Source of the DNA: a virus
Lineage: Duplodnaviria; Heunggongvirae; Uroviricota; Caudoviricetes
Virus record (IMG/VR): IMGVR_UViG_3300021319_000003
Strand: one strand, 5' to 3'
Length of the DNA stretch: 64,000 bases
Positions 7,887 to 34,582 of the stretch are shown piece after piece. Below the pieces are notes generated by a model. The model was not told the DNA's origin, ran no database searches, and worked only from the letters and a program-made list of their open reading frames with translations. A program made the translations under genes and the position numbers. How positions within the stretch are numbered: position 1 is the stretch's first letter; each line of letters opens with the position of its first letter.

Positions 7887-9796
7887 CCAAAGAAGAGCTT
7901 TTGTCGGCCATCAAACAGGCTGACCATGAATATTATGACCTGGACAATCCGTCCATGTCTGATGCAGAGTACGACCAGTTGCGCCGTAGTTACATTGACC
8001 AGTACGGTGCCGAGGATTTGAACTATGTCCCCGGCAATGCCGTAGATGGTTTTGAAAAATTTCGGCACCCGACGCCGGTCACATCTTTGGGTAAGTGGAC
8101 TAAGGGCGTAGACGATGAGAGCGACCTTAAGGCACAGATTAAGAAGCTGTGGCCGGTAGAGGTTCAGCCGAAATACGATGGACTCACCATAGTAGCATAT
8201 CCGAACAAAAACGGTTCCTGTAAATTCGTGACTCGTGGCCTTGGTGGAGAAGTAGGGGAAATTCTGCCCAACTTCATCCCCGACTATGAAGGCACACATG
8301 TCAACGATAGCGGTTATCCGATTCGTGGCGAAGTATTTATCACGCCAGGGAATTTCGAAATGCTTAACCGGATGCTAGAAGCGGACGGCAAAGAACCGAT
8401 GAAAAATATGAGAAATGCGGCGGCCGGATTATTACGTCGCAAAGAGCGCAGTCCTTACCTGGATTTGCTGACATATATTGTGTATGACATACCTGGTGCA
8501 GATATGACACCGGAGAAAATGCGTACCGAAATTATGCTAAGCACAAGGTTCAGATTCACAGATGGATTTAGCTACGAAACACCTGAAGATACTGTCTCTG
8601 GTATCGAACAGGTGTATGAAGATATAGTTAGCATTGGTGCGTTCCCGATTGACGGTATTGTTATCAAGAGCTGTCAGGAAAATAGCTTGGCAAAGTTCGG
8701 CAATACCGGGCATCATCCCAAGAATGCCGTGGCATGGAAACCGGGCAGAACTGTATTCACAACGGTAGTTCGCGATGTTATCTGGCAGATGGGACGCTCC
8801 AAAGCAACGCCTGTAGCCATCGTAGACCCCGTGGAAATCGACGGCGCTACGGTCACAAAAGCATCCTTGCATAACGCAGAGCAAATTCGCAAGCTGGGAC
8901 TCAAAATCGGAGCTAAAGTCACAATTTTCAAGGCAAATGAGATAATTCCTCAGCTGGGTGAGGTGCTTGAACCGGGCGACAAAGACATCGTTCTTGACGT
9001 TTGCCCCGCATGCGGTGGCCCGCTGAAAACCGTTAATGGCCAGCAGTTCTGCACGAACCCCGACTGTACCGAACGCATCGCACAGAATATCGCATTCCTG
9101 GGGCAGAAAGATGTCTTAGACATCCCCGGCCTGTCTATTCAGACCGCCCGCAAGATTGTCGAAAAGTGGCCGGATACTTCCAAGGAGTATAAGCAGAATA
9201 TCATTTTCGCTATGGACGTTTCCGCTATCAAGGATTTACCGGGCTTTGCAGAAAAATCCGCGCAGAAACTTTGCGACGCCATTCAGAAAGCTCGTAAAGA
9301 TGTTGAATTGCCACGTTTCATTAAAGCTCTTTGCATTCCAGGAATCGGAAACAATATCGGTAAGATTTTGGCTGATAAATATGGCAGCCTTGATGAACTG
9401 TGCACAGCTTGCACAGGCTCCGGTGTCGTTGAAAGACTGCAGCGTATTGATGGCATTGGCCCTGTGGCCGCACAGACCATTGCTTTAGATGAATTCTGGT
9501 CAGCTGTCAGTGACTTGAAAGATTATGTTACTATTGCGTCTTATGAGAAGAAAGACGTTGTGGTGGGCGAATTTGTCGGTAAAGTATTTGTGCTGACCGG
9601 CAAGATGGCTCATCCGCGCAGCTACTATGTCGAGAAAATCGAAGCGGCGGGCGGCAAAGAAGGCAGTGCTGTTAATAGCAAGACAGATTACCTGGTTATC
9701 GCTGATGTTAATAGCCAGAGTTCTAAGGCCAAAAAAGCCAGAGAACTGGGTACAACTCTTATCAGCCCGGAAGAATTGGAGGAAATGCTAAAGTGA
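7883..9796 (+). CDS. ligA: NAD-dependent DNA ligase
   Basis: Adenylation motif KYDGLT, N-terminal Ia domain, Cys4 zinc finger (CPACGGPL...CTNPDC), HhH region and C-terminal BRCT-like segment. 637 aa. Confidence 0.9.
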   Translation: MTKEELLSAIKQADHEYYDLDNPSMSDAEYDQLRRSYIDQYGAEDLNYVPGNAVDGFEKFRHPTPVTSLGKWTKGVDDESDLKAQIKKLWPVEVQPKYDGLTIVAYPNKNGSCKFVTRGLGGEVGEILPNFIPDYEGTHVNDSGYPIRGEVFITPGNFEMLNRMLEADGKEPMKNMRNAAAGLLRRKERSPYLDLLTYIVYDIPGADMTPEKMRTEIMLSTRFRFTDGFSYETPEDTVSGIEQVYEDIVSIGAFPIDGIVIKSCQENSLAKFGNTGHHPKNAVAWKPGRTVFTTVVRDVIWQMGRSKATPVAIVDPVEIDGATVTKASLHNAEQIRKLGLKIGAKVTIFKANEIIPQLGEVLEPGDKDIVLDVCPACGGPLKTVNGQQFCTNPDCTERIAQNIAFLGQKDVLDIPGLSIQTARKIVEKWPDTSKEYKQNIIFAMDVSAIKDLPGFAEKSAQKLCDAIQKARKDVELPRFIKALCIPGIGNNIGKILADKYGSLDELCTACTGSGVVERLQRIDGIGPVAAQTIALDEFWSAVSDLKDYVTIASYEKKDVVVGEFVGKVFVLTGKMAHPRSYYVEKIEAAGGKEGSAVNSKTDYLVIADVNSQSSKAKKARELGTTLISPEELEEMLK

Positions 9797-21636: not shown

Positions 21637-21711
21637 GCCGATGTAGCTCAATAGGGAGAGAGCACCGAAACTGTAACCTCGGCGACCCAGGTTCGAGTCC
21701 TGGCATTGGCT
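21637..21711 (+). tRNA. tRNA with atypical (9-10 nt) anticodon loop, isotype unresolved
   Basis: Acceptor GCCGATG/CATTGGC, D arm GCTC...GAGC, T arm CCAGG-TTCGAGT-CCTGG. The anticodon arm has only a 4-bp stem CCGA/TCGG with loop AACTGTAACC. Confidence 0.5.
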
Positions 21712-24887: not shown

Positions 24888-24898
24888 TATATCATACA

Positions 24899-24969
24899 TC
24901 CCCAAAGCTCCTCCGGCAGAGCTCGTAAGGCTACGGCTTGCGGCGAAGGTTCGAATCCTTCTTGGGGGT
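24899..24969 (+). other. tRNA-like element with non-canonical anticodon region
   Basis: Acceptor TCCCCAA/TTGGGGG, D arm GCTC-CTCCGGCA-GAGC, T arm GAAGG-TTCGAAT-CCTTC. Central arm does not fold canonically. Confidence 0.3.
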
Positions 24970-24974
24970 ATCAT

Positions 24975-25029
24975 GCTCAAAGTCTGGGGGACACCGGCCG
25001 GTAGACAGGTTCGATTCCTGTATTGAGCA
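24975..25029 (+). other. mini tRNA-like minihelix (acceptor + T arm, ~55 nt)
   Basis: GCTCAAA...ATTGAGC acceptor and ACAGG-TTCGATT-CCTGT T arm with a single ~22-nt internal segment. No D or anticodon arm. Confidence 0.35.
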
Positions 25030-25149
25030 ACATTGTTCTGAGGGAAATGATCAATCTTTTCGGAACAAACATTGTGCCACAATGATTTCCAGACGTGGCA
25101 TCCCCCGCCTGAGGGATGGTAAAAGCATATCAGGCGCCTATAATGTTCC

Positions 25150-25221
25150 AACTCTGGGAGCTATGCTTATACTGGATAACCAATCCAGTACATAAGGCAG
25201 GTTCGATTCCTGCAAGGAGCG
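25150..25221 (+). other. tRNA-like 3' half / degenerate tRNA
   Basis: T arm GCAGG-TTCGATT-CCTGC plus acceptor-like 3' strand. 5' partner poorly matched. Confidence 0.25.
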
Positions 25222-26594
25222 CTTATCCAATCTCCACCGTGCGCAATTGGGCGCCGGAAATGTAAAAGGGTCGCTACCTTTACAGGCGATGTTAAATCCA
25301 TGATGCTGCCTTGGGAGCCGGGCATCAAGATGTTTCCCGATATTAAAATCGGGCACCAATTGGCTATCGGGTGTGTATAAGCTTAGGATAGCCCGTGAGG
25401 TCAAGCTTCCGCGACGATGAAGGTGTAAAGCACGTTAAACAGCTCCATGAATATTTCGCGGGTTTTCCGAAGTTCTAAGAATCGGGCGTTCAATGGCTGC
25501 GAGCGCGTAAATAGACAGCCAGCTTGAGTCACCGTGGACCCCGGATGTCCCGAAAGGAGCATGCCGGACAGGCGATAAGGCCGCGTTCCACGACACGAAA
25601 GCTTTCCTTGCCCGGCACGGTAGGTTAAACCGGGATAAGGGCTCCATTACCCTTGGCTGTAACCAGAATAGGCCAACCGCGTTTTTGGGTTCGCACTGCT
25701 GTGTGCAGGCGTCTCGATTACCCGGTGCCAACAGCCGAAGAGATGACCTTTATCGGAGCGTTCGCTATCGGACAATTGCTGAGGAAGTAAGAACTAAAGG
25801 CCACGGTTTTTAGCACTCAGAATAACGACGCGAAGGCATTCCTTTCGGTGGAGGTATACCGAAGAATATAAAACCTGGTCCACCCCGATAACGCCGTAAA
25901 GTACAAACGGTAGCTCGGTTCAGTGGTAGCAAGGTTGCGCCAAGCGTACCTGGATTACTTTTATCTGGATGAGCTAAAGTACACAGCTTATCAACTTAAG
26001 GATAATAACAGGCACGAAGGTGATTTAGCCTCCAAGGCGAAAAACGGCGTAGGGTAAGGGCACTACGTAATAAGCCGCCCGAGTCGGAAGAACCGACATA
26101 AAACCTGCATAAGATAACTGCTTGGCACAGGGTTAAGCAGGGAAACCGGTGGCTACGGCAGTAATCCGGTAAACGCCAAAGACATGTGGGCCTCCCCTGC
26201 GGGGTGAGTAAGTTACTTGGCGGCCGTAAAAGGAATTCATAAAAAAAAGCGAGAACTCGGTCATGGAGACTAACCCATCTCCAAATTCTCCAGATACTGC
26301 TTATCCTTTCGGGTATCATAGCTCATTCGCGACAAATGCGGAAGGAGTACCTTGTTCCGTATAGCGCAATGCGGAGCATGCTATTATTAGACCTCGTAAG
26401 CAAAGACAGGGACAGCAATCTCGTTCAAATCGGTAAAGCTTACCCCCCAGGTATCGGGCAGTTATTTGCCAAAGCTTGGATGGGTCAATCCGACACAGTG
26501 CTGCTGTATCTCGGGCACTAAAAACCTGCACTGGTACTTCATCATCTTTCATACCAGTAAAAGCGTTTAATAGCCTGACCCGAAAGGGTCATAT

Positions 26595-26992
26595 GGGGAC
26601 GAAATTGGTTTCGACAGGGTGTTGAAGCCGTAAGATTCGCAGACCGATGGTTATGACGTCTAACTCATTAACCGCTAAATTTAACTGACGAAGTTGAATA
26701 TCGTCTCGCTGCCTAATCTGCCGTAAGGTAGATTGGTTAGCCCCTATCGTATCACTAGCTGTGAGCAGGGCGGTAGGTTTCAAATAAACACAGCAAACGT
26801 CAGGAGGCCCGCTCGACGTAAACAACACGGGGAGTTTTCCTGCTTTCGAAAAAGCAGGTGGTGGAGGTGTAGACCATTACGCTTTGTTCGGCTGGTTACA
26901 CCCTAGAGAATGGCGCTCTTAAAAATGCCTATTGCGATAATGTCTTACAGGTGGATGCATTTTGGACACGGGTTCGACTCCCGTCGTCTCCA
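26595..26992 (+). ncRNA. ssrA: tmRNA (ssrA), tag reading frame ...DEVEYRLAA*
   Basis: 5' GGGGACGAAATTGGTTTCGACAGGG matches the tmRNA 5' consensus. 3' T arm ACGGG-TTCGACT-CCCGT and acceptor CGTCTCC pair with the 5' GGGGACG. Internal ORF GAC GAA GTT GAA TAT CGT CTC GCT GCC TAA ends in LAA like canonical tags. Confidence 0.75.
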
Positions 26993-26995
26993 CGG

Positions 26996-27023
26996 CCGCG
27001 ACAAGGTTAACGTCTTGAAGCGG
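26996..27023 (+). repeat. bipartite hairpin, GTTAACGT-loop family copy 3a
   Basis: Outer stem CCGC/GCGG, inner stem CAAG/CTTG, loop GTTAACGT. Begins 4 nt after the tmRNA 3' end. Confidence 0.65.
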
Positions 27024-27030
27024 CAGCCAC

Positions 27031-27062
27031 CGTTCCGATGAGGTTAACGTCTCAAAGGAACG
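27031..27062 (+). repeat. bipartite hairpin, GTTAACGT-loop family copy 3b
   Basis: Outer stem CGTTCC/GGAACG, inner stem TGAG/CTCA, loop GTTAACGT. Tandem with copy 3a. Confidence 0.65.
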
Positions 27063-27190
27063 AAAATTACGGAGCTTAAGAAATCAGCCATATCGGCTGA
27101 TTAAGGCAAATCTATTGAAATGTTTTCCGGAAGCTTGCACCGGATTATAGATTTGTCTTAATGAACTGATATGAGAAAGGGGAAAATATT

Positions 27191-27724
27191 TTGTTAGCTT
27201 TTGCGATGGATTACGAAGACGCGCTCCGTAAAACGGACCGTGCAAACTGGATGAACCCAAACACAAAGTGGTATTACGGTGGATGGGAAACAGAGATTGT
27301 TGTTGACAAGAATACCTGGAATAACATCCAGATGGTATCAGTCGATAAAGAAGACAATGTACATGGATATTTTAGCGTAGCTGTCGACGAAACGCTTAAC
27401 AGGCTGGCCAGTATGAGTGTAATCAACTATGGCCCCAAGTGTGACCTTGTTTTTTCAAAAGACTTTTACCAGTTCTTAAAATATCTATTCGTCGATAGAG
27501 GGTTTCACAAGTTGGAATGGACAGTGGTAATTGGGAACCCGATTGAGAAGATGTATGACCGTTTTTGTAAAAAAGCGGGCGGAAATATTATCGGCATTTC
27601 TCACGATTCGGCAATGTTACGTGACAGAAGACCGTATGACCAGAAACACTATGAGGTTTTTGATAGAGGCGTAATCGCCTATCTGGAAAGCAAAGGCATA
27701 AAAGATAAATGGAAAAGAAAGTAA
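27191..27724 (+). CDS. GNAT-like acetyltransferase fold protein (weak)
   Basis: 177 aa. C-terminal FHKLEWTVVIGNPIEKMYDRFCKKAGG resembles GNAT motif A. TTG start with GAAAGGGGA ribosome-binding site. Confidence 0.45.
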   Translation: MLAFAMDYEDALRKTDRANWMNPNTKWYYGGWETEIVVDKNTWNNIQMVSVDKEDNVHGYFSVAVDETLNRLASMSVINYGPKCDLVFSKDFYQFLKYLFVDRGFHKLEWTVVIGNPIEKMYDRFCKKAGGNIIGISHDSAMLRDRRPYDQKHYEVFDRGVIAYLESKGIKDKWKRK

Positions 27725-28266
27725 AGTTATACCTTCTCGGCGGTACTGCTGTCGTAGACTTTGTTTATTCAGCAACATCGCCAATTATCCACATATATTT
27801 TATAAGCCTGATAAGTTCCAGTGTTTTGGCCATGGCCAATATTCTGACCACCGCTTTGGCGGCAGGCGTAAACGCATCTATCCAGTCAGATAAACTCAAA
27901 GACTTTTATCGGCATCACTTCTTATGGATAATCGCAATAGATGTTGTCTGTTTCGCGCTTATCAGTTTTGAAGGCATATCAATCCCGGAAGTCAGATTCT
28001 TAGGCTTAGCTGTTTTAAATGCCGTATCATCAACTCTTTGGTTTACTGTGGTAAATGACGCAATCAATCATAAGATTGAGGGCGATAGATTGACAAAATG
28101 GAACAGCTTGTCTAAAACGGTTAATCTGACGGCGGCACTATTAGGCAGCGTAATCGCGATAATCTTTACGCAGATTAGTGTAGAGTATTGTATCGCGGCA
28201 CAATGCATAGCAAACTTATTCATGGGTGCCACAGACTGGTTAGCTTATAAGAGGATACGATATTAA
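27709..28266 (+). CDS. integral membrane protein (about 5 TM helices)
   Basis: 185-aa hydrophobic ORF overlapping the upstream stop. Confidence 0.5.
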   Translation: MEKKVKLYLLGGTAVVDFVYSATSPIIHIYFISLISSSVLAMANILTTALAAGVNASIQSDKLKDFYRHHFLWIIAIDVVCFALISFEGISIPEVRFLGLAVLNAVSSTLWFTVVNDAINHKIEGDRLTKWNSLSKTVNLTAALLGSVIAIIFTQISVEYCIAAQCIANLFMGATDWLAYKRIRY

Positions 28267-28387
28267 GAGGTGTAAGTATGACGGCAGCAGATAGTGTCTT
28301 TGCAGGCTTTATGTTAATTTTCGCCCTTGTAATGATTGGGGCAATAGCGATTGGAGCTGTATCTATGTTGAACGATGAAGATAGAAC

Positions 28388-28603
28388 ATGAGCAAGGTCA
28401 TTGATTTACAAGAGTACAAAGAAAAGAACAGTCCGCATGAAGTGGCCGAAGTAATCTGCCTGCATTGCATGCACCGTTGGTTGTCCGTGCACAAGCAGGG
28501 GGAATGGCTTGCTAAATGGGATTGTCCTAAATGCGGCAAAGTGGGTGGCATAATATATACCGGCCAGCCGTTGCCAGAGGATGGTGAGAGATATGCAGAC
28601 TAA
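28388..28603 (+). CDS. zinc-ribbon protein
   Basis: CLHCMHRW...CPKCGKVGG motifs. 71 aa. Confidence 0.5.
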   Translation: MSKVIDLQEYKEKNSPHEVAEVICLHCMHRWLSVHKQGEWLAKWDCPKCGKVGGIIYTGQPLPEDGERYAD

Positions 28604-28823
28604 ACTTCCGGAGCAAGTAATCGAAAGTATTAATGCAGGTATAGCTAAAGCGCATGAAGCGATTTCGGCTCACGACCGCATCCTTTCAATGAACAAATCT
28701 CATAAAAGATATTGGCAGATAAATAAAGCTTATCGACTTTTGCAGTCAAAAGCGGAAATTGTGCTGCCACACGAAATTCACCAAATCGTGACAACCATAA
28801 AATTGTCAAGGAAAAGACATTAA
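28581..28823 (+). CDS. hypothetical protein
   Basis: 80-aa ORF overlapping the upstream gene. Confidence 0.45.
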   Translation: MVRDMQTKLPEQVIESINAGIAKAHEAISAHDRILSMNKSHKRYWQINKAYRLLQSKAEIVLPHEIHQIVTTIKLSRKRH

Positions 28824-29267
28824 AACCCATCACAGCAGGAGCGTCTGTGAATATGTCGAGCTCGCACCCAGGAGTCAATAGCCGTGTTAGAGTCCGGCGA
28901 CGTAGAGGTCAAATACTTAGTCATAACAGTAGTGGCACCCCGGTAAGGGGGAGGTGTACGGTGCAAGTCCGTACGGACATTGACAAGAGAGCTTCAGAAC
29001 CTGCAGTAAAGCAGTAAAAATCCTCCGCCCACGTTTGCAACGGGTTTAGGGCGTAAAAGATGTAAGCCAGTCCGGCCGAACGCAATAACCTGCCGATGTG
29101 CACTTCAAGCAGGAAGGGTGCTGCCGCCTTAAGATAAGAAAAGCACCTCACGCGGGAACTTCCGTCGTTCCGCCCGCGTAATTTATTAAAAAGGGGATAA
29201 AAATGAGTTTTCAAGATTGGCTTGATGACGAAGAATTATAAAGTCGGTTATCGCATCTAATATCATG

Positions 29268-29319
29268 TACTCTGGTCTGGTGGCCTTTTGGAAGAAGCAG
29301 GTTCGATTCCTGCAGAGTA
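29268..29319 (+). other. mini tRNA-like minihelix
   Basis: Acceptor TACTCTG/CAGAGTA and T arm CAGG-TTCGATT-CCTG with a ~22-nt internal segment beginning GTCTGG (also found in the 24975 element). Confidence 0.35.
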
Positions 29320-29885
29320 GATACCTCTCTTGGTTGCGACAAGAGCGTAATTGGACAGGCCTGAATTCACCTGTCGGAGCTGAACGAGAAACAGCAAAAA
29401 CACCTGCGCCAACAGGTGATTGGCGTTGCCGCGCCGCGTATTTACTGCTATGCGTAAGAAAGCAGCGTAAACCTGATTGCAGGACTGATCATCCTGAAAA
29501 ATGACTGTACGAAAATCAGTTACCGAAATGACAGGGTTAGATTTCGGCGGATACCATGACAGACCAAGCATCATGGGATGCCGTGACAAGGCAAAGCCGG
29601 TTGTCAAGGACAAGACATAAACCCCAAGACATCACTTAGCTGATGATGCTCTGTCGGGAAGAGTCATATACTAACCAAAAAGCGGGCGGCTATATGCCCC
29701 AGGATACTGCATTAACAGTCGGGTATCAACGCAATTATATAATAAAGGGGCCATCAGTAGTCCACTGCAAAGGACGAGTCTGTAGAATGACGGGTTGGCA
29801 TCCTCCGTTTCGAGCTTCGTAAAAGTATCACGGGAGTTGCGGTAGGATTTGCAGCTACCGCAGCAACATTCCCGTTTATATCATG

Positions 29886-29915
29886 TCCCCAACGAGGTTA
29901 GCGTCTCAGCGGGGA
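29886..29915 (+). repeat. bipartite hairpin, GTTAGCGT-loop variant (family copy 4)
   Basis: Outer stem TCCCC/GGGGA, inner stem GAG/CTC, loop GTTAGCGT. Confidence 0.55.
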
Positions 29916-30177
29916 GGAATCCGTTTTAGTTTACCCTGAGGAATAGGCAATGATGAGTGCGCAATTATCTAACTGAAACAAAGGGTAAATGAGAGCCTGC
30001 AAGGCAACCAGGTGCGGAAATGGTATGCAGAAAACCATAACCTGCCGGAGACTTGACTGGCCGTTATAGATGTCAAGCGCAGAATACCGCGATAGGTGTA
30101 TCGAGGGAGTAGGCGAACTCCCGACGTTAGCAAAAAAACTCACTAGAGACGGCAAAATGCCATGTCGTCTCGATTAA

Positions 30178-30219
30178 GGACCCCTAGCTCAGTTGGTTAG
30201 AAGCCCTGAGGGGTCCACC
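30178..30219 (+). other. tRNA-derived hairpin: acceptor stem GGACCCC/GGGGTCC closed over a D-arm-like loop
   Basis: GGACCCC-TAGCTCAGTTGGTTAGAAGCCCTGA-GGGGTCC-ACC. Its 3' 17 nt, GYCC-GAGGGG-TCCACC, recur at 31048-31064. Confidence 0.4.
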
Positions 30220-30223
30220 TTAC

Positions 30224-30302
30224 CCAGGCGTAGCTAAGTTGGTGGTAGCGGCGGCCTTATAAGCCGTGTCTTACGTGGGTTCAAGTCCCACCGCCTGGAC
30301 CA
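30224..30302 (+). tRNA. tRNA-Ile (anticodon UAU, reads AUA)
   Basis: Acceptor CCAGGCG/CGCCTGG, anticodon stem GCGGC/GCCGT with loop CTTATAA, T arm GTGGG-TTCAAGT-CCCAC, encoded CCA. Confidence 0.75.
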
Positions 30303-30384
30303 TTAATTAATTTGTGAGCACTTTTTGAACTAACATCATGTTTTAAGTTCACACAATAGGTAATGTTGCCTACGGTGATATGAA

Positions 30385-31014
30385 TTGAAATATGTATGTA
30401 AAGTTTGTGGCAATGAATATGAATATGGCCGCAGTAAAGGACACTCAAAAGACATTTGTAACACTTGCAGACAAAACTATAGAAAAAAGCTTTTGAAACA
30501 AAGAGCTGTTAAGTACAAAGGCAGGAAATGTCAGGTATGCGGATACGATAAATGCGAAAATGCATTGGTATTCCATCATCTCGACCCCCAGCAAAAGAAT
30601 TTTGGCATTGGACAAAAATACAATCTCGGCTGGCATCGCTTAAAAAAGGAATTAGACAAATGTGTTCTTCTTTGCGCTAACTGCCATGCCGAAGAACATG
30701 CTAAAGGACAGCACAAACTTAATGAATACGAAAAATGGATTGTTCCACTAAAAGAAAGAGTTCGTATAGCAGAAGAAAAAGTTGCAAAAAAAGCGATGGA
30801 AAAAGAAAAATTCTGTAACCATTATGATGTCGATGAAGCGGTCTTAGGAAATATACGTCCCTGGGCAAGAAAGACGGTGCGTCCAACGAAAGAAGAATTC
30901 TTCAAAGAGTATGAAGAAGTTGGTCGCAACAAATCTGAGATGGGACGGCGCTATGGCGTTTCTGGTAAGGCCATAGCAAAATGGATAAAGTCGTACGAAA
31001 AGTATGGCGCATAA
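30385..31014 (+). CDS. HNH homing-type endonuclease with C-terminal HTH
   Basis: HNH core FHHLDP...NLGW...LLCANCH and N-terminal Cys pairs. C-terminal RRYGVSGKAIAKWI is HTH-like. Confidence 0.75.
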   Translation: MKYVCKVCGNEYEYGRSKGHSKDICNTCRQNYRKKLLKQRAVKYKGRKCQVCGYDKCENALVFHHLDPQQKNFGIGQKYNLGWHRLKKELDKCVLLCANCHAEEHAKGQHKLNEYEKWIVPLKERVRIAEEKVAKKAMEKEKFCNHYDVDEAVLGNIRPWARKTVRPTKEEFFKEYEEVGRNKSEMGRRYGVSGKAIAKWIKSYEKYGA

Positions 31015-31020
31015 ACAAAA

Positions 31021-31064
31021 TCAGTGGACGCGGGTCCTCGGTTCAAGTCCGAGGGGGTCCACCA
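31021..31064 (+). other. tRNA 3' half (variable region + T arm + acceptor 3' strand + CCA)
   Basis: GGGTC-CTCGG-TTCAAGT-CCGAG-GGGGTCC-ACCA. The acceptor 3' strand is complementary to GGACCCC at 30178. Confidence 0.4.
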
Positions 31065-31303
31065 TATGGAATAAGCAAGGCGAAAGCCTTGTAAGTTCCT
31101 CTCCTTTTTCTAAGAAACAAACAAAATAGCGAGCGCTCTGAACTTCGGTTCAGGCGCCCGTAGAGCTCTTAATAAAGATTGAGAGTTGTACGGGCGAAAG
31201 CCTTTTTAGCTATTGTTCAAGAAACAACTGCGCTCAGACAGTATAACATTCTGGGTAGTGCTTCGGTGTGCTGTGCACGAAAGGAATACAGCCTTCCACT
31301 TAT

Positions 31304-31361
31304 GAGGGGTCGTTGAGAGGCGGGCGCAATGCGTCGCAGGTTCGAACCCTGCCGTCCCTCA
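31304..31361 (+). other. mini tRNA-like minihelix
   Basis: Acceptor GAGGGGTC/CGTCCCTC and T arm GCAGG-TTCGAAC-CCTGC with only about 24 nt between them. Confidence 0.35.
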
Positions 31362-31365
31362 TCTT

Positions 31366-31448
31366 AGGGGTATAGCCAAGTTGGTTAAGGCGGGAGCCTT
31401 TGAAGCTCCGATTTACTTACACTGGTTCGAGTCCAGTTACCCCTGCCA
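31366..31448 (+). tRNA. tRNA-Gln-like (anticodon UUG), 11-nt variable region
   Basis: Acceptor AGGGGTA/TACCCCT, anticodon stem GGAGC/GCTCC with loop CTTTGAA, T arm ACTGG-TTCGAGT-CCAGT, encoded CCA. Confidence 0.55.
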
Positions 31449-31482
31449 TCATCTTCAAAATCAGGCTAACGTCTGACGATGA
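31449..31482 (+). repeat. bipartite hairpin, GCTAACGT-loop variant (family copy 5)
   Basis: Outer stem TCATC/GATGA, inner stem TCAG/CTGA, loop GCTAACGT. Begins at the nucleotide after the tRNA-Gln CCA. Confidence 0.6.
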
Positions 31483-31783
31483 AGGAAAAGAACGCTGGTA
31501 TATTGGCGTCGGCTTTTCCCGTATGATAAAGATACGGACAAGTCATATGGCCATATATCGGCACCGGCAAAAGCTCAAAACAAAAGTGAGTAGCCGGGGC
31601 AAGACCGGGACACCTTCCGGACTTTATTATGTACATCGAGTTGAATATTTTTATGCGTATTATCCAAAGAGTTAGGTGTAGCTCCCGACTCGATGCGGCG
31701 AAGAGAGGATAAGATGCATAGTGAAGATATCTACAAAGGGCAACCGCTTAGTCGAGCTCCCTGCGAACCGGATATCTATCATC

Positions 31784-31868
31784 CGCGTGTAGCTCAGTGG
31801 TGGCAGCGCCTGCTTTGGGAGCAGGAGGCCGCAGGTTCGAATTCTGTCATCCCGACCAATATTATCAT
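31784..31868 (+). other. degenerate tRNA-Pro-like element (anticodon UGG)
   Basis: Anticodon arm CCTGC-TTTGGGA-GCAGG and T arm present, but the acceptor stem does not pair. The overlapping ORF 31693-31938 is judged spurious. Confidence 0.3.
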
Positions 31869-32025
31869 GGCAGTGTCGGCTATATTAAGTTTTCTGGTTG
31901 CAAACAGGACTCTTAACGAAATGGTTGCGCCGATATAAAACAGAACATGCCTATAACACTGGTTGCAAACAGTTTATAGGTGATGCTGGTTGCGGGTTCG
32001 ATTCCCGCCACTGCCCCTTATTATG

Positions 32026-32038
32026 GCTTGGTAGTCTA
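32026..32038 (+). other. 5' fragment of split tRNA-Cys (acceptor GGCTTGG + TA + GTCT)
   Basis: GGCTTGG is the exact complement of the CCAAGCC acceptor 3' strand at 33691-33697. GTCT can pair with AGGC at 33647-33650 as the D stem. Confidence 0.5.
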
Positions 32039-32039
32039 G

Positions 32040-32342
32040 TCAATAACCCCCGTCTAGCGCTTTGCGCTTGAAGGCGGGAGCTTGCGAAAGCAAGCTCTTA
32101 CCGACTAGCCTAAGTCCGGTATTAGACAAGTGCTTGAAAAAGCCTCGGACTACGTTGTTTTCGTTATCACACCCGTGGGTGTTTATCCTAGCTCCCCGCT
32201 CTGTGTAGGCTCTGTAAAAGTTCTGAGAGGAGGAACGGTCAACCTAAGGACGGCCCGCCATTGCGGGCAAGCGATTACAACATTGGCGAAGGGTAGATTT
32301 ACTCTAATTTGAAGCTTCAGCTTCGGAAAGGAGGTACACGTT
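32040..32342 (+). ncRNA. putative IscB omega RNA
   Basis: ORF-free, hairpin-rich region (for example GCGCTTTGCGC and GGGAGCTTGCGAAAGCAAGCTCTT) directly 5' of iscB, which is where IscB guide RNAs are encoded. Confidence 0.45.
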
Positions 32343-33611
32343 ATGTTCGTGTACGTTATCAATAAAAACGGACAACCGTTAATGCCTTGTAAACCTCAGA
32401 AAGCTAGAAAGCTGCTGAGGGAAAACAAAGCTATGGTTGTAAAATATGAGCCGTTTACAATTAAGTTGAAATATGGCTCAGCTGGCTATAAACAGCCAAT
32501 AACTCTTGGTATTGATGCTGGCTCTGTACATATCGGAGCCTCAGCATCAACAGAGAAACAAGAATTATATGCTTCAGAAACGATTATGCGCTCTGGTGAT
32601 GGCAAAGCATCTATTGTAAGGCTTTTGGCTAAACGGTTAGAACTTCGTCACAGTCGCCGGAACCGCAAGACACGGTATCGCAAAGTAAGATTTTTGAATC
32701 GGGTTCGCCGTAAACACAAAGGTTGGCTTGCGCCAAGCGTGGAGAACAAAATCAATGTTCATCTAAAGCTTGTGGCGGATATCCATAAGATTCTTCCGGT
32801 AACGAAAGTTATTGTAGAAGTAGCTCAATTCGATATTCAGAAAATCAAGAATCCTGATATTTCTGGGGTCGAATATCAGCAGGGAGAACAGTTTGGATGG
32901 GCGAATGTTCGTGAATACGTATTATTCCGTGATGGTCATCAATGTCAGTGCTGTAAAGGGAGTTCTGGCGACCCAATACTCAATGTACATCATATTGAAA
33001 GTCGTATGACTGGAGGCAATGCGCCGAATAACCTGATAACGCTTTGTGAAACCTGCCATCAGGGATATCATCAAGGCAATATCTCTTTACCGAAGACAAT
33101 ACATCGTGGCATGAGATTCCGAGACGCGACTTTCATGGGAATTATGCGTTGGGCTTTTTACAACAAGCTTAAAGAGCAATATCCTGATGTGCATTTAACA
33201 TACGGCTACATCACGAAAAACACTCGCATCAAAAATGGTATTACAAAAACACATTCGGCAGACGCCTACTGTATTGCGGGCAATATCAATGCAGAACGGC
33301 TCAACTACGAATATCTTCGTAAACAAATTCGTCGGCATAACCGTAAGTTGCATCGCGAAGTGCCAGCAAAAGGCGGCGTTCGTAAGCGAGCACAAGCCGG
33401 ACATATTGTTCGGGGGTTCTGCTTAAATGACACAGTGTTTTATCAAAAGCAATGCTGGTTTGTGAGAGGTATGAGAGTCAAAGGTTCTTTTGTCTTAAAG
33501 CACCTAGACGGAACTAAGGCTGAAGTAGCACCATCAAAAATAACATTTTTGATGCATAATAATTCGTATTTAGTCGAAAGGAGAGAAGCGGCGCTCACCT
33601 CCACTCTGTAG
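32343..33611 (+). CDS. iscB: IscB OMEGA nuclease (RuvC-HNH, Cas9-ancestor family)
   Basis: N-terminal PLMP motif (NGQPLMPCKP), RuvC-I ITLGIDAGSVHIGAS, arginine-rich bridge RRNRKTRYRKVRFLNRVRRK, HNH HHIESRMTGGNAPNNLITLCETCH, and C-terminal RuvC-III (HSADAYCIAG). 422 aa. Confidence 0.8.
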   Translation: MFVYVINKNGQPLMPCKPQKARKLLRENKAMVVKYEPFTIKLKYGSAGYKQPITLGIDAGSVHIGASASTEKQELYASETIMRSGDGKASIVRLLAKRLELRHSRRNRKTRYRKVRFLNRVRRKHKGWLAPSVENKINVHLKLVADIHKILPVTKVIVEVAQFDIQKIKNPDISGVEYQQGEQFGWANVREYVLFRDGHQCQCCKGSSGDPILNVHHIESRMTGGNAPNNLITLCETCHQGYHQGNISLPKTIHRGMRFRDATFMGIMRWAFYNKLKEQYPDVHLTYGYITKNTRIKNGITKTHSADAYCIAGNINAERLNYEYLRKQIRRHNRKLHREVPAKGGVRKRAQAGHIVRGFCLNDTVFYQKQCWFVRGMRVKGSFVLKHLDGTKAEVAPSKITFLMHNNSYLVERREAALTSTL

Positions 33612-33639
33612 AGGGTGGAGTCCCCCGCGCCGCGTTTTA

Positions 33640-33701
33640 AGTGGTTAGGCAACGGTCTGCAAAACCGTTTCACGCCGGTTCGATCCCGGCCCAAGCCTCC
33701 A
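33640..33701 (+). tRNA. tRNA-Cys (anticodon GCA), 3' portion of a gene split by the IscB element
   Basis: Anticodon stem ACGGT/ACCGT with loop CTGCAAA, T arm GCCGG-TTCGATC-CCGGC, acceptor 3' CCAAGCC + T + CCA. The 5' acceptor half lies at 32026. Confidence 0.55.
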
Positions 33702-33707
33702 TATCAT

Positions 33708-33784
33708 GTGGTTGTAGCTCAGTTGGATAGAGCAGCCGCCTCCTAAGCGGCAGGTCGTGCGTTCAAATCGCACCAATCACACCA
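33708..33784 (+). tRNA. tRNA-Arg (anticodon CCU)
   Basis: Acceptor GTGGTTG/CAATCAC, anticodon stem GCCGC/GCGGC with loop CTCCTAA, T arm GTGCG-TTCAAAT-CGCAC, encoded CCA. Confidence 0.8.
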
Positions 33785-33790
33785 TATTAT

Positions 33791-33877
33791 GCGCCTATGA
33801 TGGAATTGGCAGACATGGGAGATTCAAAATCTCCTGGTAGTGATACCGTGCAAGTTCAAGTCTTGCTAGGCGCACCA
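33791..33877 (+). tRNA. tRNA-Leu (anticodon CAA)
   Basis: Acceptor GCGCCTA/TAGGCGC, anticodon stem GGAGA/TCTCC with loop TTCAAAA, long variable arm, encoded CCA. Spacer ATATTATG to neighbouring tRNAs. Confidence 0.8.
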
Positions 33878-33883
33878 TATTAT

Positions 33884-33960
33884 GCCCTTCTAGCCCAATT
33901 GGCAGAGGCAACCGGTTTAAGCCCGGTACAGTCAGAGTTCGAATCTCTGGAGGGGCACCA
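33884..33960 (+). tRNA. tRNA with anticodon UAA (Leu codon UUA) but class I short variable arm
   Basis: Acceptor GCCCTTC/GAGGGGC, anticodon stem ACCGG/CCGGT with loop TTTAAGC, 5-nt variable region, T arm CAGAG-TTCGAAT-CTCTG, encoded CCA. Confidence 0.65.
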
Positions 33961-33966
33961 TATTAT

Positions 33967-34063
33967 GGGAAACGTCAGGTGGCGGAAAAGAGCATTCGGG
34001 TTCGATTCCCGACGCCCTGCGGGGTCCGTGGTGGTCAGCCTGGTTCGAGTCCAGGGTTTCCCT
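33967..34063 (+). tRNA. tRNA-Ser-like (anticodon CGA), 97 nt with long variable arm
   Basis: Acceptor GGGAAAC/GTTTCCC, anticodon arm TCGGG-TTCGATT-CCCGA, long GC-rich variable arm, T arm CCTGG-TTCGAGT-CCAGG. No encoded CCA. Confidence 0.5.
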
Positions 34064-34085
34064 TTATAAGGAGTTCCTACATTGG

Positions 34086-34140
34086 ACAGTAAGAGCGGGT
34101 TTCGATTCCCGACACGCCGACGGGCGTCCTGGTGGTAATA
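34086..34140 (+). other. pseudo-tRNA fragment (partial duplicate of the tRNA-Ser(CGA)-like anticodon/variable region)
   Basis: GAGCGGGTTTCGATTCCCGACACGCCGACGGGCGTCCTGGTGG aligns with GAGCATTCGGGTTCGATTCCCGACGCCCTGCGGGGTCCGTGGTGG at 33990-34034. Confidence 0.3.
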
Positions 34141-34336
34141 AGTGTTGGTGCGTACAGGCTTCAATTCCGGATGCGAAGTCTGTGCAATTCCAACAGCTCC
34201 AAGTGCGCAAACACTATAAATATGCCTGCTACATGCGGCTGCAGGTATCTTCTTCGGGCGGAGACAATAAATAAACGCCCGAAAGGTCCCGTCAGTGTAG
34301 GGGAACCGTCTGAATACTCATTGCCGCATTTATCAT

Positions 34337-34429
34337 GGACAGGTACTCAAGTGGTTGAAGAGGGTGAGCTTGAACCTCACTAGGTCGCAGTGATGCGGCG
34401 CGCGCGTTCGAATCGTGCCCTGTCCGCCA
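34337..34429 (+). tRNA. tRNA-Ser (anticodon UGA)
   Basis: Acceptor GGACAGG/CCTGTCC, anticodon stem GTGAG/CTCAC with loop CTTGAAC, long variable arm, T arm GCGCG-TTCGAAT-CGTGC, encoded CCA. Confidence 0.75.
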
Positions 34430-34456
34430 GTAATTATATAAGGGGGAGTTTTCACA

Positions 34457-34582
34457 ATGATGAGAGCAATGATTCTTTGTCTTACAGTTGCTTTTATTGG
34501 CTTGTTTGTATTCTTCGGAATTCATTATGCCAATGAAGTAGGACGTGAGATTAAGGATACCCTAAAAAAGTTGTTCGGCTAA
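34457..34582 (+). CDS. small membrane peptide (41 aa)
   Basis: MMRAMILCLTVAFIGLFVFFGIHY... with GGGGGAG ribosome-binding site. Below the ORF-track cutoff. Confidence 0.35.
   Translation: MMRAMILCLTVAFIGLFVFFGIHYANEVGREIKDTLKKLFG

Follow-up and report, generated by a model that had tools for sequence, protein, structure and literature searches.

In the 64,000-nt stretch of the IMG/VR virus record IMGVR_UViG_3300021319_000003 (Duplodnaviria; Heunggongvirae; Uroviricota; Caudoviricetes) that was analyzed here as a whole (the window), positions 30178 to 31064 hold, on the + strand, a single tRNA gene in two halves with an insert of 805 bp between them. The broken gene is, judged from its sequence, of the tRNA-Ile2(CAU) type, and it was probably interrupted in its anticodon loop by a mobile cassette that is devoid of a ribozyme and brings with it, besides the gene of an HNH homing-type endonuclease and its leader, an intact tRNA that reads AUA. 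Below we describe the locus and its relatives, the way in which such an arrangement could have arisen, and the other explanations that deserve to be weighed.

The locus opens with the 5′ piece of the broken gene (30178-30209, nt 1-31 of the tRNA), which is composed of the acceptor strand GGACCCC, TA, a D arm GCTC-AGTTGGTTA-GA(A)GC, a C and the anticodon-stem 5′ strand CTGA. The insert then begins with a 10-nt tail, GGGGTCCACC (30210-30219), an exact repeat in which the acceptor 3′ strand and the ACC behind it occur for a second time and which closes a mini-helix with the 5′ piece. A spacer read as TTAC (4 nt, 30220-30223), of a length typical of neighbors in the array, leads to the intact tRNA-Ile(UAU) (30224-30302), called by ARAGORN and scored at 61.9 bits by the Rfam tRNA model. 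It is followed by a conserved 82-nt leader (30303-30384), delimited by the alignment of nine leaders, and by an open reading frame (ORF) of 209 aa (30385-31014, with a TTG start and a TAA stop at 31012-31014) for an HNH endonuclease with a putative C-terminal helix-turn-helix (HTH). The stop codon directly abuts the anticodon-loop remains of the 3′ piece (31015-31064, approximately nt 33-76 plus CCA). The anticodon side of this piece consists of a degenerate loop ACAAAA, the stem 3′ strand TCAGT, an extra GGACGC and a variable loop GGGTC; the distal side, of the T arm CTCGG-TTCAAGT-CCGAG, the acceptor 3′ strand GGGGTCC, an A and CCA. Identity of 24-mers with IMG/VR tRNAs supports the limits of both pieces, as do, for the 5′ piece, the ARAGORN call on the joined halves described below and, for the 3′ piece, its position after the stop codon in seven split lineages. 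Homology with contig L137, the nearest relative, starts with the former and ends at 31065.

A preliminary description, made from the sequence alone, had placed a 5′ element, a 3′ element, a tRNA-Ile(UAU) and a 209-aa ORF here, and all of them lie exactly where it had put them. The 5′ element together with the tail (30178-30219) reads GGACCCC-TAGCTCAGTTGGTTAGAAGCCCTGA-GGGGTCC-ACC, that is, a perfect 7-bp stem over 25 nt, with a minimum free energy of -19.7 kcal/mol (z = -2.0). The acceptor stem closing over a D arm was thus correctly recognized, but the claim that the element has no part of an anticodon arm does not hold, since CCTGA corresponds to the anticodon-stem 5′ strand and is complementary to TCAG at 31021-31024. 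The 17-mer said to be common to both elements matches at 15 of 17 ungapped positions. The exact 10-mer GGGGTCCACC is found nowhere else on either strand of the 64 kb than at 30210-30219 and 31054-31063. The comparison of the window with L137 gives no support for selection on the mini-helix, the changes that fall there being not compensatory.

That the two pieces are halves of one tRNA gene is shown by several layers of evidence. Neither is called by ARAGORN when taken alone, and the in silico junction of 30178-30209 with 31014-31064 gives an 83-nt cloverleaf at the default threshold. The first 24 nt of the 5′ piece are identical to the start of intact tRNAs in six IMG/VR loci (tRNA-CAU and tRNA-Lys), and one of the CAU tRNAs carrying this 24-mer also has the same CTGA/TCAG anticodon stem; the 24-mer of the 3′ piece, in turn, is the 3′ end of intact CAU tRNAs in 11 IMG/VR loci. 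Furthermore, the acceptor strands of the two pieces co-vary among relatives: GGACCCC/GGGGTCC in the window, GGACCCA/TGGGTC(G) in L137, GGGCCTC/GGGGCCC in L038 and GGGCCTC/GAGGCCC in L039. Intact homologues of the broken tRNA are present in L037, L015, L002/L005 and L023-L033; the one in L015, a contig whose Band_7 protein is 82% identical to that of the window, reads GGTCCCC...CTCATAA...GGGGACCACCA. The joined product of the window itself carries several defects, namely A33, the anticodon CAA, a C27/U43 mismatch, a bulged D stem and an 11-nt variable region with 6 extra nt.

Regarding the identity of the broken gene, it has been described that Ile(CAT) genes are discriminated from Met and fMet ones by the absence of a C3-G70 pair and by the pairs C4-G69 and C5-G68 (Silva et al., 2006, PMC1635315). 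The pieces in the window present A3-T70, C4-G69 and C5-G68, and are therefore of the Ile(CAT) type by these criteria, not of the Met or fMet type. The same discriminators are found in L037, in L038/L039 and in the genes of a second Ile2-type tRNA, tRNA-CAU#2 (see below), and the acceptor 3′ strand of L139 is consistent with them. Moreover, the 3′ piece of L139 retains the loop U33-CAU-AA, which in the window has drifted to ACAAAA. A tRNA-Lys(UUU) origin was also considered, as the 5′ 24-mer starts Lys tRNAs too, and was rejected: the 3′ 24-mer occurs in CAU tRNAs only, and L139 keeps CAU. From the assignment to the tRNA-Ile2(CAU) type it follows that the tRNA-Ile(UAU) inserted between the halves would read the same codon, AUA, as the gene that it interrupts.

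The 209-aa ORF matches the HNH family phrog_2255 of PHROG (E = 7e-29), although a Pfam search does not call its HNH domain. The HNH endonuclease noticed in the preliminary description is thereby confirmed; the C-terminal HTH fared less well, with a weak Pfam match (HTH_28, E = 0.0012) below the cut-off. A CxxC...HH...CxxCH motif, comprising two CxxC pairs, HH, N and H, is invariant across 57 homologues, and the AlphaFold2 model has a pLDDT (predicted local distance difference test) of 94.9. With its catalytic and zinc residues conserved and a confident model, the predicted enzyme looks intact. The comparison of the model with the PDB gave no significant match, the best being weak ones to HNH nucleases (Cap5, the best of all, T4 endonuclease VII, Gme, GVE2, McrA and the HNH domain of Cas9) and to HTH domains; sequence and fold searches of the PDB alike returned weak matches only, with no close solved relative of the protein.

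The leader that precedes the ORF presents a T-loop-like AAGTTCA (30345-30351), a hairpin TAGG/CCTA (30357-30372) with GTAAT at 30360-30364, and a Shine-Dalgarno-like GGTGAT (30374-30379). In the nine aligned leaders GTAAT is invariant, and the hairpin arms vary between homologues yet remain complementary. The eight homologous leaders (L034, L037, L038, L041, L137, L139, L140 and L141) also share a T-loop-like (A/T)AG(G)TTCRA motif, and the hairpin adjoins or overlaps the GGTGAT/GAGGTG ribosome-binding site, a position that suggests translational control, as in other phage homing endonuclease genes.

The arrangement recurs in other genomes. Full-length homologues of the ORF are rare, with eight close ones at 52-82% identity, all from metagenome assemblies; their genomic context was examined in every case, so that with the window nine lineages can be compared. 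All eight lie between AUA-type tRNA-Ile genes or pieces of them, and an intact AUA-type tRNA (UAU, or CAU of the Ile2 type) stands upstream of the HNH ORF in the nine lineages. In four (P0001, P0003, P0006 and P0007) the layout of the window is repeated: tRNA-Ile(UAU), a leader of ~75 nt, the HNH ORF and then the 3′ part of a CAU tRNA, which starts in the anticodon loop. L137, L038 and L039 have a 5′ piece and a tail in front of the tRNA-Ile(UAU); L034 and L139 lack them. Two further proteins, P0009 and P0011 (79% identical to each other), have a different intact Ile2-type tRNA upstream, the above-mentioned tRNA-CAU#2. P0009 is inserted in the same broken CAU tRNA as that of L038, and P0011 lies inside a broken tRNA-Ile(UAU) which is itself preceded by an L038-type 5′ piece and tail, i.e., a nested insertion. 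Over nt 32-48, the broken targets of P0009 and P0011 are closer to one another than either is to the linked tRNA-CAU#2. Finally, P0004 and P0005 represent an unsplit form, with an intact CAU tRNA upstream and an intact tRNA-Ile(UAU) 0-6 nt past the stop codon; the CAU tRNA immediately precedes the leader in L037, and an extra ORF intervenes in L041. The tRNA-Ile(UAU) that directly follows the HNH stop codon in L041 (5625-5716) is 92 nt long, with a variable region of ~20 nt.

The junctions of these insertions behave differently on the two sides. The window and the six other split arrangements all have their 3′ junction in the anticodon loop. On the 5′ side the junction varies by lineage, falling at nt 14, at ~21-26 or at 31, or leaving no 5′ piece at all: L038/L039 lack nt 26-34, and with them the anticodon-stem 5′ strand, and L140 retains nt 1-14 only. 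Equivalents of the tail stand before the cassette tRNA with differing junctions, namely GAGGCCCACCA in L039, CCCACCA in L038 and ACACCA in L141. A natural adjacency of CAU and UAU genes was considered as the source of the tail and discarded, as none of 64 HNH-less phage tRNA-Ile(UAU) loci used as a control has a CAU tRNA within 60 nt. Beyond the eight close homologues, megablast against INPHARED phages matched no close relative, a single-protein scan of IMG/VR with the HNH sequence gave no relative, profile scans of IMG/VR and JGI metagenomes gave distant HNH relatives only, and an HNH profile scan of GTDB genomes found none.

Mobility is seen in L038 and L039, two otherwise unrelated contigs that encode an identical HNH protein and have in common only a block of 895 bp, running from ~35 nt upstream of the 5′ piece through the ACCA of the 3′ piece. 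Their central ~800 nt, from the tail through the tRNA-Ile(UAU), leader and ORF up to the 13th nt of the 3′ piece, differ by one synonymous substitution. By contrast with this near-identical core, three differences are concentrated in the 33 nt of the 5′ piece, including the deletion junction (GAGC joined to TCCCACCA versus GAG joined to GCCCACCA). A further three fall in the distal 25 nt of the 3′ piece: two are compensatory changes in one T-stem pair, and the remaining one replaces a G-U pair with the 5′ piece by A-U. The homology that the window has with L137 extends exactly over 30178-31065, from tRNA nt 1 to the CCA, at 83% identity and with none beyond. P0009 and P0011, which follow the same tRNA-CAU#2 but are lodged in different broken tRNAs, are a further sign of mobility. 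The block is therefore a discrete module present in unrelated genomic contexts. Homing or gene conversion into different alleles of one target would give just this combination of a core almost free of differences, tRNA flanks that diverge and limits that coincide sharply with the tRNA ends, and the compensated T-stem changes and the co-variation of the acceptor strands would be due to the sampling of these differences from intact tRNA alleles. The proposal of the preliminary description, that a tRNA gene was hit by a homing or integration event which duplicated its 3′ end and partly deleted the original, is thus borne out by the limits of the L137 block, the recurring architecture, the L038/L039 pair and the intact homologues in L015 and L037.

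How could such a structure arise? The HNH enzyme would cut or nick the DNA of an intact AUA-type tRNA-Ile gene in the region that comprises the anticodon loop, the stem strand 3′ of it and the variable loop, and the break would be repaired from a cassette-bearing copy, with the tRNA 3′ half serving as homology; equivalently, a Campbell-type single crossover could occur with a cassette bringing its own copy of nt 33-76. The outcome would be a cassette placed after nt 32 and a tRNA 3′ end in two copies. On the left side, either a microhomology join during repair or a later internal deletion of the regenerated left copy would leave the 5′ piece plus tail as a mini-helix, a regenerated intact left copy being itself a potential target of the enzyme. 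Short repeats are indeed found at the left junctions: in the window CTGA is followed by GGGG, versus CCGA followed by GGGGG, and in L039 GAG is followed by GCCC. Such a scheme of repair or crossover would explain a cassette-derived proximal part of the 3′ piece, a recipient-derived distal part, a tail before the cassette tRNA, and a left junction made anew each time. Once interrupted, the target would render the carrier immune to its own enzyme, and the linked tRNA-Ile(UAU) would restore the decoding of AUA. The pieces themselves would be non-functional scars.

Several points weigh against this explanation. Both the activity of the HNH enzyme and its specificity for intact AUA-type tRNA-Ile genes are putative. 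The order of events fits in several ways, as a Campbell-type crossover or as double-strand break repair with a microhomology join, and with the deletion coming before or after. The T stems of the 3′ pieces stay paired through many changes, which could reflect selection rather than the fresh sampling of alleles, and in the tails of both the window and L039 precisely the 7 nt of a complete acceptor 3′ strand are left, which would have to be coincidental if the deletions were random. In L037 and L041 the HNH gene lies between two intact tRNAs, hence the enzyme does not always disrupt its neighbor. Furthermore, an allele of this phage with an empty site was not found, as 14 of the 14 contigs with the upstream neighbor carry the cassette; exact look-ups of the HNH protein and of the upstream 76-aa neighbor returned the same phage species only, always with the cassette. 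The Band_7 and 177-aa neighbors lead to related phages (L012-L022) in which the tRNA array is missing or has been rearranged; L015 alone among them has a comparable intact CAU tRNA, which owing to the rearrangement does not lie at the same position. The comparison with related phages that the preliminary description called for has thus yielded the intact tRNA (in L015, from a related phage, and in L037, a relative of the cassette), but neither an equivalent position nor an empty site.

The wider HNH family adds to the picture that the niche of these enzymes is the tRNA gene, with and without a ribozyme, as its members are found adjacent to tRNAs, borne by introns and splitting tRNA genes. Metagenomes gave 83 distinct distant relatives, of which 31 show a tRNA on the same strand that overlaps the stop codon or starts within 30 nt of it, and the isotypes of these downstream tRNAs cluster (Asn-GUU in 11, Ile-GAU in 7). 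Six relatives that were tested (L058, L082, L093, L099, L110 and L119) lie in group I introns that Rfam detects, and the tRNA 3′ exon behind the intron starts at the anticodon loop, CTTGTAA, of a tRNA-Thr(UGU). In L054 (2921-3375) a tRNA-Asn(GUU) gene is split by a bare leader of ~25 nt and a short HNH ORF, with no group I intron match and no accompanying tRNA in the insert; the geometry is that of the window, with another isotype. Two side observations can be made on these relatives. In L043, L044, L047, L056, L063, L064, L077 and others, the stop codon TAG (TAA in L043) coincides with U8-A9-G10 of the next tRNA, so that RNase P processing would strip the stop codon from the mRNA. In the intron-borne relatives the frame stays open up to ~150 nt upstream of the HNH match (far more in L110), a part of which is putatively the tRNA 5′ exon.

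A bolder extension of the proposed mechanism would see in this cassette a natural "cleave-and-rescue" element, and we put it forward only tentatively. The HNH enzyme would destroy AUA-reading tRNA-Ile genes in competing or recipient phages and spread together with a cleavage-resistant isoacceptor, either tRNA-Ile(UAU) or a divergent Ile2-type CAU tRNA, so that the converted genomes would keep reading AUA. HNH sub-clades, each specific for one tRNA isotype (Asn-GUU, Ile-GAU, Ile-UAU/CAU or Thr-UGU), would then rank among the main causes of the turnover that phage tRNA arrays undergo and of the fragments and tRNA-like debris found in them.

Among the explanations that compete with a cassette-broken tRNA gene, the one that survives best, though we regard it as unlikely, is that the 3′ piece (or the intact tRNA that follows the ORF in its place) is no scar but a selected, tRNA-like 3′ element of the HNH mRNA, which would signal processing or stability through RNase P/Z or the CCA-adding enzyme. 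It would be compatible with a history of insertion. A tRNA or a tRNA 3′ piece indeed lies 0-7 nt past the stop codon in all nine lineages, pairing is kept in ~14 of 15 T-stem substitutions between lineages, and ORFs of the wider family often end within the next tRNA. In the window and in L034, moreover, the extra GGAC gives a GUGGAC/GUCCAC stem and thereby a closed T-arm mini-helix (minimum free energy -20.9 kcal/mol, z = -2.95). However, L137 and L139 have changes that break pairs in the T stem or the acceptor; the compensatory change that separates L038 from L039, set against a single substitution in the core, fits the sampling of alleles by recombination better than evolution in place; and co-variation of the acceptor with a distant 5′ piece would not be expected of a stand-alone element.

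Quite unlikely, in our view, is a decayed group I intron, according to which the ORF once resided in an intron of the tRNA-Ile(CAU) anticodon loop, the ribozyme was lost, the tRNA was thereby killed and the tRNA-Ile(UAU) was acquired later. The insertion point is the classical anticodon-loop site, and HNH relatives with ~55-60% identity in the HNH core do lie in group I introns that end in a tRNA 3′ exon. The Rfam search that detects these introns at 73-103 bits gives, however, no match to the group I model RF00028 at E ≤ 5 in the window (scanned over 27000-34500), nor at the gathering score in L034, L037, L038, L041, L137, L139, L140 and L141. The exon remnant follows the stop codon at a distance of just 0-7 nt, too short to accommodate a 3′ core, and for these reasons a group I intron at the present locus was ruled out. 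Besides, the cassette tRNA belongs to the recently transferred core, and free-standing close relatives lie between intact tRNAs in L037 and L041.

The preliminary description had also offered that the halves might be spliced or otherwise assembled, that is, transcribed and then ligated, or brought together in trans through the acceptor stem, into a working tRNA. The ARAGORN-positive junction and the co-varying acceptor strands are what such a split tRNA would show, but we give it only a very remote chance. The joined product has the defects listed above; L038/L039 are without nt 26-34, L140 retains a 14-nt 5′ piece, and L034 and L139 have none; there is no group I ribozyme; and L137 presents a broken T-stem pair and a 1-72 mismatch. 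The complementarity of the insert ends is at the level of shuffled sequences (duplex of -13.1 kcal/mol versus -12.6 ± 3.2 kcal/mol, with 196 of 500 shuffles as good), and the assembly of a split tRNA was rejected on this ground together with the missing exon parts of the relatives. Equally hard to credit is an integrase-type element with the duplicated 3′ end as attL/attR and the HNH gene as mere cargo: tRNA genes are common integration sites and the tRNA 3′ end is directly repeated on both sides of the insert, but the 0.8-kb module has the HNH gene as its only ORF, with no integrase or recombinase, neither junction regenerates an intact tRNA, the repeat spans only 10-12 nt, and the left junction differs among lineages with the same cassette.

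The cassette has a GC content of 37.9% in a window of 44.4%, a difference that also speaks for an insertion. It is part of a large tRNA array that spans ~21.6-34.4 kb, in which ARAGORN recognizes 13 tRNAs and a tmRNA and Rfam one further tRNA, and which also houses a HEARO/omega RNA and its IscB gene. Of the Ile codons in 30 of the window's ORFs, 18% are ATA. The tmRNA (26595-26993) has the tag DEVEYRLAA, that of the related L015 (5700-6041) the tag DEYEYRLAA, and the unrelated, HNH-bearing contig L037 also harbors a tmRNA in its own tRNA array (8680-8996). The HEARO/omega RNA (32039-32302) scores 83.7 bits in Rfam, barely over the gathering score, and precedes a 422-aa IscB-like ORF with RRXRR and HNH domains (32343-33611), also within the array; a copy with 68% nucleotide identity is present in L013 and L016. 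At 21637-21711, ARAGORN calls a tRNA with a two-base "anticodon" (gt), to which Rfam gives 51 bits and which may have an odd anticodon loop.

Other traces of tRNA-like sequence are scattered in the same region. The ~1.35 kb located 5′ of the 5′ piece (28824-30177) hold no convincing ORF; a single orphan T arm (29297) lies there, and 48 nt match L015. In all, eight "orphan" T-arm hairpins, with a 5-bp stem and a TTCRANN loop, were found outside the ARAGORN and Rfam tRNAs, all of them on the + strand and in the tRNA region: 24898-24968, 24974-25029, 25132-25224, 29297, 31302-31362, 31992 and 33629-33700, the eighth being the 3′ piece itself, with its T arm at 31037. A weak, sub-threshold Rfam tRNA match falls at 33629-33690, and several of the hairpin sites can be folded into small cloverleaf-like shapes that resemble tRNAs (z = -3.3 for 25132-25224). 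Additional tRNA scars are one possible explanation for these hairpins, unusual tRNA-like RNAs another.

Homing endonucleases in phage tRNA clusters and group I introns in tRNA anticodon loops are both already known. What is new here is an endonuclease cassette without a ribozyme at the intron position of a tRNA gene, with a second, complete tRNA for the same codon that would offset the damage; a limited search of the open-access literature found no description of a ribozyme-less, isoacceptor-carrying cassette inside a tRNA gene. Should the enzyme have the specificity proposed above, the cassette would be a natural selfish element made of a nuclease and its rescue, and would show in concrete terms how the tRNA genes of phage arrays come to be gained, lost and fragmented so rapidly, as well as why tRNA-Ile(UAU), independent of the host TilS, replaces tRNA-Ile(CAU) in some phages. 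A family of small enzymes with HNH and putative HTH domains and predictable tRNA-gene targets also emerges. For annotation, the locus illustrates that an orphan T arm or a mini-helix in the tRNA region of a phage may be a scar of such an event and not a novel RNA.

The closest functional parallel is SegB of phages T4/T6, a free-standing GIY-YIG homing endonuclease which resides in the phage tRNA array, cuts inside tRNA genes, with a preference for the T-loop motif RAWTSGAAC and none for an isotype, promotes the preferential inheritance of its own gene and of adjoining tRNA genes, and causes amplification and rearrangements of the region (PMC13096335); HNH genes also adjoin bacterial tRNA arrays (PMC8421152). 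As in the case of SegB, the nuclease gene described here is a resident of a phage tRNA array in which neighboring tRNA genes are involved, the cutting being known for SegB and putative for the cassette. Unlike SegB, which lies between genes, the cassette carries an HNH enzyme with a putative HTH and occupies the anticodon loop of a tRNA gene; its close relatives are associated with tRNA-Ile genes that read AUA and bring an isoacceptor along. The HNH nickases of the tRNA region of phage T5 are similar to SegB.

The group I intron in the Azoarcus pre-tRNA-Ile is a well-known, ORF-less classic (PMC13168695). With the group I introns that carry homing endonuclease ORFs in the anticodon loops of bacterial and phage tRNAs, among them those of the six distant relatives named above, the cassette shares the same branch of the HNH superfamily, the same anticodon-loop region and a tRNA 3′ exon placed directly downstream. 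Its lack of a ribozyme means that the host tRNA would not be restored at the RNA level; instead, a whole second tRNA gene travels with the ORF. With integrative elements it has in common a tRNA gene as target and an insert flanked by a direct repeat of the tRNA 3′ end, but it has no integrase, the regenerated copy is not intact, the insert measures 0.8 kb and the junctions are like those of homologous or microhomology-mediated repair, not like those of site-specific recombination.

In Mycoplasma mobile, tRNA-Ile(UAU) has replaced tRNA-Ile(CAU) together with TilS, and the two AUA decoders are functionally equivalent (PMC1635315). The difference here is that the replacement tRNA lies inside the very gene that is replaced and is linked to a putative nuclease. 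It is precisely this linkage that recalls the synthetic "cleave-and-rescue" gene drives, in which a nuclease is linked to a resistant copy of what it destroys: the same logic would operate in the phage cassette, with the broken tRNA-Ile2(CAU)-type gene as the putative target of its nuclease.

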